Assembly (NCBI GenBank): GCA_963762565.1
Contig: CAVXLD010000004.1
Coordinates: 96,001-160,000, forward strand
Reading direction: 5' to 3'
Origin: an uncultured Verrucomicrobiae bacterium
Lineage (GTDB): Bacteria; Verrucomicrobiota; Verrucomicrobiia; Chthoniobacterales; JAFAMB01
Length of the DNA stretch: 64,000 nucleotides
Numbering within the stretch: the first letter of the stretch is position 1; each line of letters starts with the position of its first letter. The position numbers were made by a program, and so were the translations under genes. This document shows positions 27,895 to 47,427 of the stretch, one piece after another. Under the pieces are notes generated by a model. The model did no database searches, was not told the origin of the DNA, and saw only the letters and a program-made list of their open reading frames with translations.

Positions 27895-28153
27895 CTCGTT
27901 CTCGTCCTCGTCCTCGACTTTGCTAGGGCGAGGCTCCCGAATTGTCCAACGGTTCGAACGAAGCGTTCGGTAATACCCGCCTCTATCGCGCCGTTACGTC
28001 TGGAATCGCGCCGAGCCGTGGTCCATCGTGGGCCACGGCTCGGCGCGTCTTTCGGCCTTGCTCATTCAACTCTCGGCGTTCGCACGGTGCACCCTTGGTC
28101 AATCGTCGCGCTATTCGGGAGCCTCGCCCTACCAAAGTCGAGGACGAGAACGA
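27895..28153. repeat. REPIN-like element (tagggcgaggctccc ... gggagcctcgccctacc) nested in tcgtcc/ggacga repeats
   Basis: Inverted arms at ~27924 and ~28117; internal gccgagccg/cggctcggc hairpin. Confidence 0.85.
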
Positions 28154-38243: not shown

Positions 38244-38577
38244 AATCTAGGAGCTAGGAGGAGACTTATGGGCTGTCGACACATTGGTGGGGCGAGGCTC
38301 CCGAGAGACCGAACATCATTACCAGGGTTTAGGGCGATTCGCTGCTTTTACATACGGAAGGGCCCAAACGCGAGCCGAGCCGTTATGCGTGCCACCGTTC
38401 TGGGGCGACTACGTTACAGACCTCCGGCTCGGCACTTCAATCGACCTCATACTCCTCAAGGGCGTCGACGCACTTTGGACCCTATTGCTATTCTGGGTCT
38501 TTCGGGAGCCTCGCCCCACCAAAATGGGCTCGCCCCGACACGCCCTCCTAGCTCCTAGATTCTAGCTCCTAGCTCCT
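38228..38577. repeat. REPIN-like element (GTGG variant) flanked by inverted ctaggag heptamers
   Basis: ttggtggggcgaggctcccg at 38284 and gggagcctcgccccaccaaaa at 38504. Confidence 0.85.
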
Positions 38578-45406: not shown

Positions 45407-45465
45407 GTGGCGAGGCGTGAGAAGTGATTGGTGATTGGTGAATAGTGATTGGTGGCGGCGATGCC

Positions 45466-45704
45466 TTGGTAGGGCGAGGCTCCCGAAAGACGCAAAGCTA
45501 ATGCCAGCGCTCGACCTGTTTCGACGCTGAAGAATAAGGGTGCGCTGACAATCGTGCCGAGCCGTTTCGCCTGATGTGGCAACTTCCGGGGTGTGCACCT
45601 GCTATAGACCACGGCTCGGCGCATGTATCGGTGCGGCAAAAGATGGATTCGTCAGAACTGCCCTCCTTTGCGAGGCTTTCTAAGTCTTTTGGGAGCCTCG
45701 CCCC
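45466..45704. repeat. REPIN-like element whose right arm is interrupted by the IS
   Basis: ttggtagggcgaggctcccgaaagac at 45466; right arm gtcttttgggagcctcgcccc ends at 45704 and resumes as accaaaa at 47315. Confidence 0.88.
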
Positions 45705-45839
45705 CCTATGGTGTTGTCAAGCTACCCAGCGTGTTTTTAGCGGTTTGTCATCTTTTGTAGAGCAACGTAGTTGCCAAAATTTTTAGTTCAGAGATCGAGC
45801 CGGTTTGCGACGGTTGGTACGTTTCCTCTTGTGGCTCAT

Positions 45840-46150
45840 GTCTCCGAGCTCGATTGGGACAAGGCAGCCTCCTATCCGGCCTGTCAGGGTTTGACAGCGC
45901 AAGATGCTCTATACGCATCGCTCAAGAGGAACGAGCGCGCCCAATCTACCAACGGGCTTTTAAAGCCCAGGGGCGAGCACGAGCGCGCGCCGTTCCAAAG
46001 TCCAGAGTTAAAATGTTTAGTCTAGTGCTGTGTCAGCTTCTCCCTTAACCATGGGGCCTCTTTAGAGGCGCCAGCTTGCTCCTGTTTCCCCCGAACCGGG
46101 GTTTGGGGCAGAGCCCCAAGTTAAAACCCGAGTCTTCGGGTCACTTCTAA
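45840..46150 (-). ncRNA. Predicted bridge/seek RNA of the IS1111 element
   Basis: Target-binding stem-loop at 45928-45996 and donor-binding stem-loop at 45846-45923, with guide segments matching the insertion site and the circle junction. Exact transcript ends are unknown. Confidence 0.8.
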
Positions 46151-46157
46151 AATGGTT

Positions 46158-47264
46158 TTAGCCCTCGATCATGATGAGACCCAATTGCTGGGCAGTAATA
46201 CGACCGGTTTGTAGCCGCCAGATATCGACGATCAGTTGCCGGCCGATGGCCACCACGGCTTTTTTCTTCAGTCCTCGGTTAGAGCCCTCCAGTAGCTCAC
46301 GCCATTTTTGCACCGCTTTATACTCGGGCTGGAAGAGGATCATCCGCCAGACCATCTCGGTGATGATGCGCCGCAGAGCCGGTAGTCCCACTTTGGTGAT
46401 TGCACCCAAGCGTTGGCTCTCTCCGCTGCTCCATTCACTGGGCACCATCCCGGCTAAGCAGCCGATCTTGCGTTCAGTTGAGTAAAGATTCCAATCCAGT
46501 ACTTCAGCATTCAATTGCGCCAAGCTGGGAGCTCCCATCCCCTTTGGCCGTGGGCCTTGGTACTGCTTGGTTAGCTCTGCCTTGGCTTGCTCAATTTGCT
46601 GGTCTAGCTCGCGTAATATCCCAACCCAGCGACCAAGATGTTTTACAATCCAAGGCGCCACCCCCTTGCTTAAGTGCTCAAAAGCTTTGGGCCGCCACCA
46701 ATTGCTCCAGCTCTGGTAGCCCTGGCTCAGCAAAAGGGAGTTGCCCATGACGCCGATGCGCTGGCGTTCTTGCACCAGCGCATCGTGCTGGCGACTTTCC
46801 ACTCGAGCCTGCTCTTGAGCCTCCCTCGGTATTCTGACCAGTTGCAGCGCTTGCTCATTGCCATTGAGATAATTGCTCAGATCACTGGTTAAGGTTCGCG
46901 CATCAATTGAGTTGTTCTTGCCCCGCTTCCTCTTCTGCTCTCCGCTGCGGGGTGCACAGACCAGGCACTCAATCCCGCTTGCCTTTAACTGCCGATACAG
47001 CGAGTACCCCAGCGGCCCGGCTTCGTAGACCACCACCACTTCCTTGGCTTGCTCTCGCTGCTTCTCAACGTAAAGCAACAACGCTTCCTTGCTCCCGAAT
47101 GTCTGGGCTACTCCCACAGCCCCGTTATCGATCTTGCGGGCCGCCTGATAGCTCTTTAGGTGCGCATCGACTCCCAGCACGATCCGGTTTGCCTTCGCTT
47201 CCTTTTGGCTGTTCTTTTCCTGGCTTACGGCGGTCGGTGCCGCCTTGAGTTTGTATTCAATCAT
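46158..47264 (-). CDS. IS110 family recombinase (RuvC-like DEDD domain plus Tnp_20 domain)
   Basis: LGVDAH, YEAGPLG, KNNSIDA, AGMVPSEWSSG, ITKVG and AVVAIGRQL. Confidence 0.95.
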   Translation of the reverse strand: MIEYKLKAAPTAVSQEKNSQKEAKANRIVLGVDAHLKSYQAARKIDNGAVGVAQTFGSKEALLLYVEKQREQAKEVVVVYEAGPLGYSLYRQLKASGIECLVCAPRSGEQKRKRGKNNSIDARTLTSDLSNYLNGNEQALQLVRIPREAQEQARVESRQHDALVQERQRIGVMGNSLLLSQGYQSWSNWWRPKAFEHLSKGVAPWIVKHLGRWVGILRELDQQIEQAKAELTKQYQGPRPKGMGAPSLAQLNAEVLDWNLYSTERKIGCLAGMVPSEWSSGESQRLGAITKVGLPALRRIITEMVWRMILFQPEYKAVQKWRELLEGSNRGLKKKAVVAIGRQLIVDIWRLQTGRITAQQLGLIMIEG

Positions 47265-47427
47265 TGTTTGTCAGGCTGCTGTTGATCCGGCAGCCTGACA
47301 ACACCATGGCATCTACCAAAAGAGGGGCCCCGCCCCAAATCACCAATCACCAATCACCTTTCACCTCTCATCTCTCACCCTCCCCCTCCCCCTTGCCCCC
47401 ACCCCCCTCCTCCCTTATGGGTTAGGG

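Follow-up and report, generated by a model that had tools for sequence, protein, structure and literature searches.

What fixes the letters at the two junctions of an RNA-guided insertion sequence (IS) when those junctions differ from one another? The question is raised by a 64,000-nucleotide stretch of DNA (the window) from an uncultured Verrucomicrobiae bacterium (assembly GCA_963762565.1, contig CAVXLD010000004.1, positions 96,001 to 160,000; C4:96001-160000 of the host genome, G000, which comprises 15 contigs and 6.1 Mb), where an IS interrupts one arm of an abundant repeat and has CC at its left border and CT at its right. Bridge (seek) RNA recombinases are in development as programmable genome-writing tools, with a CT core treated as a fixed common requirement. 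A natural lineage joining a CT donor to a CC target would make a test case: is core identity needed, must the second position of the target be T, and is the product set by one strand? From evidence that is comparative throughout and drawn from assemblies, the element is of a known kind—an IS1111-type RNA-guided IS in an arm resembling a repetitive extragenic palindromic (REP) sequence—with a new twist, in that the core of its target seems to be unlike that of the donor and to be tracked by a single guide base.

The element, its target and its junctions

The IS occupies 45705-47314 of the window (1610 bp), lies on the minus strand and is of the IS1111 type of the IS110 family. Its transposase is encoded by an open reading frame (ORF) of 368 amino acids (aa) on the minus strand, running from 47264 to 46158. 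The protein matches PF02371 at 46.4 bits (cut-off 21.3), PF01548 at 28.3 bits (slightly below the cut-off of 29) and NF033542, ‘IS110 family RNA-guided transposase’, at 134.7 bits (cut-off 140), the last aligned end to end over 29-351. Judged by these profiles, this DEDD recombinase with a RuvC-like domain (PF01548) and a Tnp domain (PF02371) is a member of the IS110 family; a phmmer search with the transposase against solved structures returned none at E values up to 0.01. Subterminal inverted repeats of 12 bp (45708-45719 and 47296-47307) leave extensions outside them of three bases (CCT) at the end distal to the gene and seven bases (GGCATCT) at the transposase-start end, and 453 bp of non-coding DNA lie downstream of the gene as against 50 bp upstream. 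This layout of subterminal repeats with extensions recurs in relatives. Because subterminal repeats, extensions and a long downstream non-coding part are marks of the IS1111 group (as set out in the accessible parts of PMC11187229 and PMC11208160), the element is, by an architecture that includes guides in its downstream region, of that group.

Features of the element and of the interrupted arm, in window coordinates, with the evidence in brackets:

45467-45484, minus strand: partner arm (CT variant) of the struck repeat unit, forming one inverted-repeat unit of ~240 bp with 45691-45704 and 47315-47318 (arm search, pairing)
45691-45702, plus strand: left target (LT), first 12 bases of the interrupted arm (junction letters, copies)
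45703-45704, plus strand: left-junction core CC, read as target-derived (copies, relatives, metagenome loci)
45705-47314, minus strand: the IS1111-type (IS110-family) IS of 1610 bp, present in four copies genome-wide (ends, copies, proteins)
45705-45707, plus strand: CCT extension outside the subterminal repeat, the right donor (RD), paired by the right donor guide (RDG) (junction letters, guides)
45708-45719, plus strand: gene-distal subterminal inverted repeat, ATGGTGTTGTCA (end letters)
46158-47264, minus strand: transposase (recombinase) gene, 368 aa, protein identical in four of four copies (ORF, profiles)
47296-47307, plus strand: subterminal inverted repeat at the end adjoining the transposase start, TGACAACACCAT (end letters)
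47308-47312, plus strand: left donor (LD) extension GGCAT (end letters, copies)
47313-47314, plus strand: right-junction core CT, read as donor-derived (copies, relatives, metagenome loci)
47315-47321, plus strand: right target (RT), remainder of the interrupted arm, ACCAAAA (junction letters, copies)

The target belongs to a large repeat family. Nine matches to GGGAGCCTCGCCCYACCA (up to two mismatches) occur in the window, against none expected from 100 shuffles: eight uninterrupted arms, at 27921, 28117, 35025, 36224, 36445, 38285, 38504 and 45467, and a ninth, at 45691, which is the one that the IS interrupts. A preliminary description of this DNA, made from its letters, had counted at least seven uninterrupted arms; it had also reported, in agreement with our reading, that the arms at 28117 and 36445 carry CT and that removal of 45705-47314 restores a 21-mer identical to 38504-38524. 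The arms at 38285 and 38504 read CC. Across G000, the arm core has 616 matches (up to one mismatch) and is followed by CCCACCA (the CC variant) 228 times and by CCTACC[A/G/T/C] (the CT variant) 221 times. Arms in inverted orientation make up 186 pairs (median spacing 187.5 bp), and the two arms of a pair are concordant in 154 of the 186 (83%; 83 CC/CC and 71 CT/CT). The family was found in all five genomes of the host genus, g1, with CC/CT counts of 166/71 in G002, 42/28 in G003, 116/13 in G004 and 84/56 in G005, so that CT makes up 49% of arms in G000 and 10-40% in G002-G005. In genus g8, home of a form of the IS whose left target guide ends in CU, CC arms are found at control level only.

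On the opposite strand the arm ends in GGT-AG-GG or GGT-GG-GG, which places the IS in a GTAG/GTGG motif. With this conserved GTAG-type end and their abundance as intergenic inverted-repeat units, the repeats are, by their letters and layout, of the REP/REPIN kind. They resemble REPs and REPINs (REP doublets forming hairpins) that go with REP-associated tyrosine transposases (RAYTs) in numbers (~600 arms, 186 pairs) and in an outer end of GTAG or GTGG, but classical REP doublets are far smaller than these units, and none of the 12 matches to PF01797 (Y1 transposase) in G000 lies within 1.5 kb of an arm, leaving the arms of that genome with no cognate RAYT beside them.

At the left junction in the window, gggagcctcgcc-CC gives way to CCTATGG, the first base of the IS being 45705; at the right, GGCAT-CT, ending at 47314, gives way to accaaaa. 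The genome holds four copies of the IS with 100% identical proteins, all four sharing one position and orientation within the same repeat arm; a copy outside the repeat family, which the preliminary description had named as a possible counter-example, was not among them. All four read gggagcctcgcc-CC followed by CCTATGG on the left and CT at the right junction, so the unequal junctions first described for the window recur in every copy. The right junction is GGCAT-CT followed by acca in three of the copies; the fourth, on C9, is altered but still has CT before acca. At its transposase-start end (C9:31841-31860), CAACAC-AGCT-CT stands in place of CAACAC-CATGGCAT-CT, by which the subterminal repeat is truncated and the match to the left donor guide (LDG) is lost, while the protein is intact. 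This copy may be immobile, given the truncated repeat and the lost guide match.

The junctions of relatives were sought by pattern search of 43 family genomes. The pattern CYCCTATGGTGTTG gave nine matches, eight of which are arm-IS junctions, and all eight read CC (four in G000, two in G002 and one each in G003 and G005, the G003 junction having one C fewer and an A within the arm). The sole CT match (C8:16620) was rejected as an IS junction because it lies in unrelated sequence. Right ends with the subterminal repeat carry CT in seven of seven fetched rows, and 17 of 18 right-end alignment rows read GCATCT at the flank junction; L026, the one that does not, is a diverged copy aligned only to a point short of the IS end. 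Among the 66 matches listed for the pattern CCATGGCATCYRCC in the 43 genomes, a hand count gave 53 CTACC, three CTGCC, three CCACC and seven CCGCC. The three CCACC matches were rejected as CC right junctions, there being no IS end at these sites, as is likewise true of two of the fetched CTACC matches. Full copies in another genus (G012, G020 and G023) read ..cc-CT- on the left and -CT-acc.. on the right, with a left target guide ending in CU, and in G012 an intact target with a two-base CT overlap lies ~90 bp from the IS.

Guides and their covariation with the left junction

A candidate bridge RNA lies downstream of the transposase gene. On the transposase strand, the region 45846-45996 has a predicted folding energy of −71.6 kcal/mol (z −3.53; none of 200 shuffles as good), compared with −61.5 kcal/mol on the opposite strand (z −2.26; five of 200 as good). 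All four guides are located in loops of the predicted fold, and the target hairpin is retained in seven relatives. The parts of the predicted RNA, in window coordinates:

45846-45923, minus strand: donor-binding part of the bridge RNA (predicted fold, relatives)
45869-45875, minus strand: RDG, AUAGG-AG, complementary to CT-CCTAT of the circle junction (fold, relatives)
45902-45907, minus strand: LDG, GCAU-CU, in the same sense as GCAT-CT at the transposase-start end of the IS (fold, relatives)
45928-45996, minus strand: target-binding hairpin with outer stem, two guide strands and inner stem-loop (fold, shuffles, relatives)
45946-45952, minus strand: right target guide (RTG), UUGGU-AG, complementary to CT-ACCAA (fold, relatives)
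45970-45977, minus strand: left target guide (LTG), CUCGCC-CC, in the same sense as CTCGCC-CC of the arm, its last base covarying with the left-junction core (fold, relatives, metagenome)

Both target guides had been quoted in the preliminary description and are present in these letters: GGGGCGAG, the CC form, at 45970-45977 of the plus strand (as RNA, CUCGCCCC), and CTACCAA, the CT form, at 45946-45952 (as RNA, UUGGUAG). They match the DNA over eight of eight bases for the LTG and seven of seven for the RTG (to the right junction), while the donor guides match over six of six (LDG) and seven of seven (RDG). The two RNA bases after the RTG, AU (45945-45944), are able to pair with the AT preceding the donor core. 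As the donor guides fit a circle junction of GGCAT-CT-CCTATGG, the donor core would be CT. With two loops matching the target and the joined IS ends, the region has, by complementarity, the layout of a bridge (seek) RNA. One shared CT core, in donor, target and both junctions alike, is not what we found here, the left junction having CC and the right CT; relatives with a CU guide do show it, in 12 of 12 cases.

The core-reading bases of the LDG vary in the group, being CU in genus g1, CA in G023 and AA in G012 and G020, and all the donors carry CT; the bottom-strand core of the donor thus seems not to be read in part of the group.

No Rfam family matched the RNA region at its gathering score. 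Ysr251, described as an ‘antisense sRNA’ of Yersinia, gave a weak hit (17 bits, its gathering score being 100; E 0.13) that covers 45798-45971 of the minus strand, across the bridge RNA, and includes the target hairpin in its alignment. Ysr251 may itself represent a guide RNA, belonging to an IS of this family in Yersinia.

The LTG and the left junction change together. In genus g1 an LTG of ..CC-CC goes with a left junction of CC, and in G023, G012 and G020 an LTG of ..CC-CU goes with CT. The bases facing the LT (UUCGCC versus CUCGCC) and the RDG (AGG versus AGC) covary with their DNA partners as well. We extended the comparison to 78 related metagenome loci, and in 39 of them, representing 38 distinct outer flanks, both the target loop and the distal junction could be recognised; the other 39 lacked a recognisable loop or junction and stand outside the count. 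The left junction reads CC in 26 of the 39 contigs, and the distinct flanks divide as follows:

LTG core CC, left-junction core CC: 25 distinct flanks
LTG core CU, left-junction core CT: 12 distinct flanks
LTG core CC, left-junction core CT: 1 distinct flank (L113, a copy whose repeat is degenerate)
LTG core CU, left-junction core CC: 0 distinct flanks

A second LT type (CCCGTC-CC), in elements whose protein is ~65% identical, pairs CC with CC in three of three cases. Counting genomes and metagenomes together, of the 34 insertions of CC-reading elements that differ in their flanks, 33 occupy CC arms (eight from genomes and 25 from metagenomes), L113 being the only CT case. The RTG core is AG in all relatives and metagenome loci, and CT stands at the right junction in 62 of the 63 metagenome loci; the exception has TG, and none of the 63 has CC. 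That a guide pair aims the IS at the repeat arm, as first proposed from the window, is borne out by guide complementarity and by this covariation in relatives.

Origin of the unequal cores

If the left CC is the target's own core, the struck arms should have been CC arms, and the partner arm offers an indirect test, since paired arms match in 83% of units. Partners of struck arms read CC in five of seven cases in genomes and six of seven metagenome loci; this 11 of 14 lies near the 83% that CC targets would predict and well away from the ~17% that CT targets would. The window copy is an exception, its partner arm at 45467 reading CT. The 11 CC partners, together with the abundance of CC arms in genus g1 and their control-level occurrence in the host genus of the CU form, support a CC target. 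Taken with the covariation of LTG core and left junction, and with donor guides that fit CT, they indicate a target core of CC and a donor core of CT. The same lines of evidence (covariation, donor guides and partner arms) favour the earlier suggestion that the enzyme tolerates a mismatch at the second core position.

We consider it probable that this is an IS1111-type element moving as a circle, with its bridge RNA encoded downstream and an LTG retuned from CU to CC, and that a CC target is joined to a CT donor with the outcome set by the top strand. The circle would carry the joined ends GGCAT-CT-CCTATGG. A two-loop bridge RNA would be produced from the transposase strand, its donor loop fitting the CT-core circle junction through GCAU-CU and AUAGG-AG, and UUGGU-AG would pair with the top strand from the CT core onward. 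In this lineage the LTG would have changed from CU to CC, aiming the IS at the GTGG (CC) sub-family of the arm that expanded in the genus, and the RTG would have kept AG, which fits the donor CT once this is joined to the right half of the target. Only the LTG would have changed because what it reads is the target's bottom strand, whereas the AG of the RTG must still fit the donor CT after the swap. Insertion would then bring together a CC target and a CT donor, the enzyme cutting the target behind a C in its second core position, and the product would carry top-strand information alone, with the target core on the left and the donor core on the right, which would give a left CC and a right CT in every copy.

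Work on IS621 offers a framework for these steps, as far as the available portions of the papers go. There, the LTG pairs with the bottom strand and the RTG with the top strand, with the core included in all four guides (PMC11208160); top-strand cleavage falls after core position 9, and the RTG then pairs anew, through its core bases, with the incoming donor core (PMC11208158). The bottom-strand cut lies four bases away, making a mismatched overlap normal, and the authors suggest repair (PMC11208158). The accessible text of one preprint has top-strand integration >1300-fold better than bottom-strand integration (10.1101/2025.10.25.684509), and that of another has IS621 excising mainly a single strand (10.64898/2026.08.31.748434). 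By analogy, the CC-left, CT-right outcome fits this published, top-strand-driven integration.

We would give even chances to a more general statement: that donor and target need no common core, only the LTG reading the second core base of the target and the top strand being cut with C there, and that this change came about in at least two guide lineages while the host repeat was diversifying. A role for the core mismatch in setting the direction of the reaction was considered and rejected, as counts of guide-DNA pairs before and after exchange give the same net change as with a matched core.

Several observations count against this account. The PF01548 and NF033542 scores both fall narrowly below their curated cut-offs. 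No empty allele of the four sites with a CC arm was found in orthologous spacers of three genomes of the genus (G002 has the left half-unit only, with no right arm, and G003 and G001 have no unit), so the CC target is reconstructed rather than seen. The sole IS-less form of the locus, a contig of run X2 (depth 18), joins 45707 to 47318 and skips exactly 1610 bases, but its skip is shifted three bases to the right of the IS borders, so that CCT is kept, ACC is gone and the site, CGCCCCCCT joined to AAAAGAGG, is not a canonical arm. The shorter side of this contig has 20 letters, a weak anchor, and its junction string occurs nowhere else in G000; either excision in a shifted register or faulty assembly could account for it. 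No back-joined contig that would mark a circle junction was present among the metagenome contigs compared with the locus. In IS621, moreover, the second core base is a nearly invariant, protein-contacted T (PMC11208158) and guide mismatches at the core are poorly tolerated (PMC11208160), both according to the parts of these papers at hand; here the RTG would meet a C.A mismatch before exchange, which would presumably have to be harmless. The variable LDG core means that not every guide in the group reads the core, and the CC forms comprise two LT types only, so that the covariation rests on few independent changes.

Against this background, other explanations of the unequal junctions were weighed. 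The preliminary description had proposed that a hybrid guide pair, with an LTG reading CC and an RTG reading CT, serves GTGG and GTAG arms alike; arms of both kinds would then be used about equally and the safe landing sites doubled. The two target guides do read different arm variants, L113 combines a CC-reading LTG with a CT left junction, which makes a CT arm usable, and the partner arm of the window copy is CT. Yet only one of the 34 CC-reading insertions lies in a CT arm, in genomes where CT arms are nonetheless common (the 49% and 10-40% given above), CU-reading relatives are in CT arms in 12 of 12 cases, and the RTG core, AG whatever the target, looks untuned to the variant. Equal use of the two arm types is accordingly unlikely, and the proposal finds little backing.

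That description had also spoken of recombination across a mismatched core, and this has held up in part: the cores do differ, but the outcome is the same every time, with no sign of the mixed products that resolution of a heteroduplex would leave. In its full form, the idea is that both strands are exchanged over a mismatched overlap of two (or four) bases and that the heteroduplex junctions are resolved by replication or mismatch repair. The IS621 structures, in which the bottom strand is cleaved and for which the authors propose in-cell repair of mismatched bases (in the accessible part of PMC11208158), lend it some plausibility. Random resolution predicts CT on the left and CC on the right in about half of insertions, and this reciprocal pattern was not seen: a right junction of CC is missing from all 63 metagenome loci, from the seven rows with the subterminal repeat and from the four G000 copies. 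We regard this explanation as quite unlikely.

The two strands might instead be cut at the same place, with an overlap of zero bases, after CCCC of the arm and CT of the IS, making any common core needless. Flanks and IS ends have no base in common at the junction if the target was CC, and the Hall group describes IS1111 elements as making no duplication (in the available text of PMC11187229). The sequences of the CC junctions by themselves do not discriminate between such blunt joining and joining of the top strand alone; CU-reading relatives, however, show a clean two-base CT overlap and an intact target beside the IS, and all four guides still have two core-reading bases, in register with the IS621 scheme, which leaves a zero-base overlap very unlikely in our judgement.

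An error of assembly or sequencing at the left junction, which does lie in a homopolymer (a run of six C) and for which the preliminary description had asked that a miscall be considered, is practically negligible as an explanation, because CC is repeated in four G000 copies, four junctions of three other genomes (making eight of eight junctions in the 43 genomes) and 26 metagenome contigs drawn from numerous records (25 of the 38 distinct flanks), and matches an LTG encoded elsewhere in the element.

Relation to known elements and minor observations

One of the closest known systems is IS621 of Escherichia coli, of the IS110 group (PMC11208160, PMC11208158 and PMC13626964). In the accessible portions of these papers, it shares with the present IS a recombinase with DEDD and Tnp domains and a two-loop RNA, left guides in the sense of the top strand and right guides complementary to it with two core-reading bases each, a donor core of CT and a handshake-like AU after the RTG. 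It, too, targets a REP at the GTAG end, ATCAGGC-CT-AC being complementary to GTAG (letters from PMC11208160, the reading being ours). It differs in that its RNA lies upstream of the gene, whereas the present IS has its RNA downstream and long subterminal repeats, and in that its CT core, alike in donor and target, is called ‘invariant’ (PMC13626964), whereas here the target core would be CC and only the LTG would have followed.

The IS also comes close to the IS1111 group with seekRNA (for example ISEc11 and IS4321/IS5075; PMC11187229), with which, on the available text of that source, it shares subterminal repeats, a long downstream guide-RNA region, the lack of a true target duplication, a seven-base transposase-proximal extension and site-specific insertion in one orientation. 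Unequal junction cores are not described in that text, the present host belongs to the Verrucomicrobiota of soil, and the repeat family that serves as target is a different one. ISPpu9 and ISPpu10 of Pseudomonas putida (PMC12288879; preprint 10.64898/2026.03.19.712850) are likewise RNA-guided and enter one position of a REP, at AG (= CT) of its conserved end, the REPs providing many harmless intergenic landing sites. For ISPpu9 an ‘invariant AG dinucleotide’ is reported at both ends (PMC12288879) and for ISPpu10 a ‘duplicated CT dinucleotide’ (preprint 10.64898/2026.03.19.712850), whereas the present IS, read in the direction of the transposase gene, has AG at one end and GG at the other.

We found no description of unequal donor and target cores in the published IS110 literature, supplements aside. 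One analysis of Durrant et al. applied a filter for ‘CT core guides’, which implies that other core guides exist. The present element would keep pace with a diversifying host repeat by letting one guide base follow the change from GTAG to GTGG. If donor and target indeed need no common core, the fixed CT core would be a habit of the known elements rather than a rule of the chemistry, and the natural junctions would amount to field evidence for a product set by the top strand on its own.

Smaller sequences related to the IS were also encountered. Two palindromic mini-elements of ~100 bp, L040 (G042:C351) and L041 (G003:C415), consist of two inverted copies of the transposase-start end of the IS and are flanked by CT-ACC at both sides; they resemble gene-less derivatives, which the same enzyme may move. 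On the minus strand of G000 at C6:44490-44540, a CC arm contains a 14-base insert, CCTATGG (the first seven IS bases) plus ACTGCCC, before the remainder of the arm; the insert string, at C6:44533, is unique in G000, and the insert resembles a footprint, or a remnant, left by this IS or by a relative. Around the interrupted repeat unit itself, mirrored arrays of seven-base words (of the GTGATTG and CAATCAC types) lie on both sides, at 45423-45455 and 47338-47380 of the window, and many contigs of run X2 branch at 47338.

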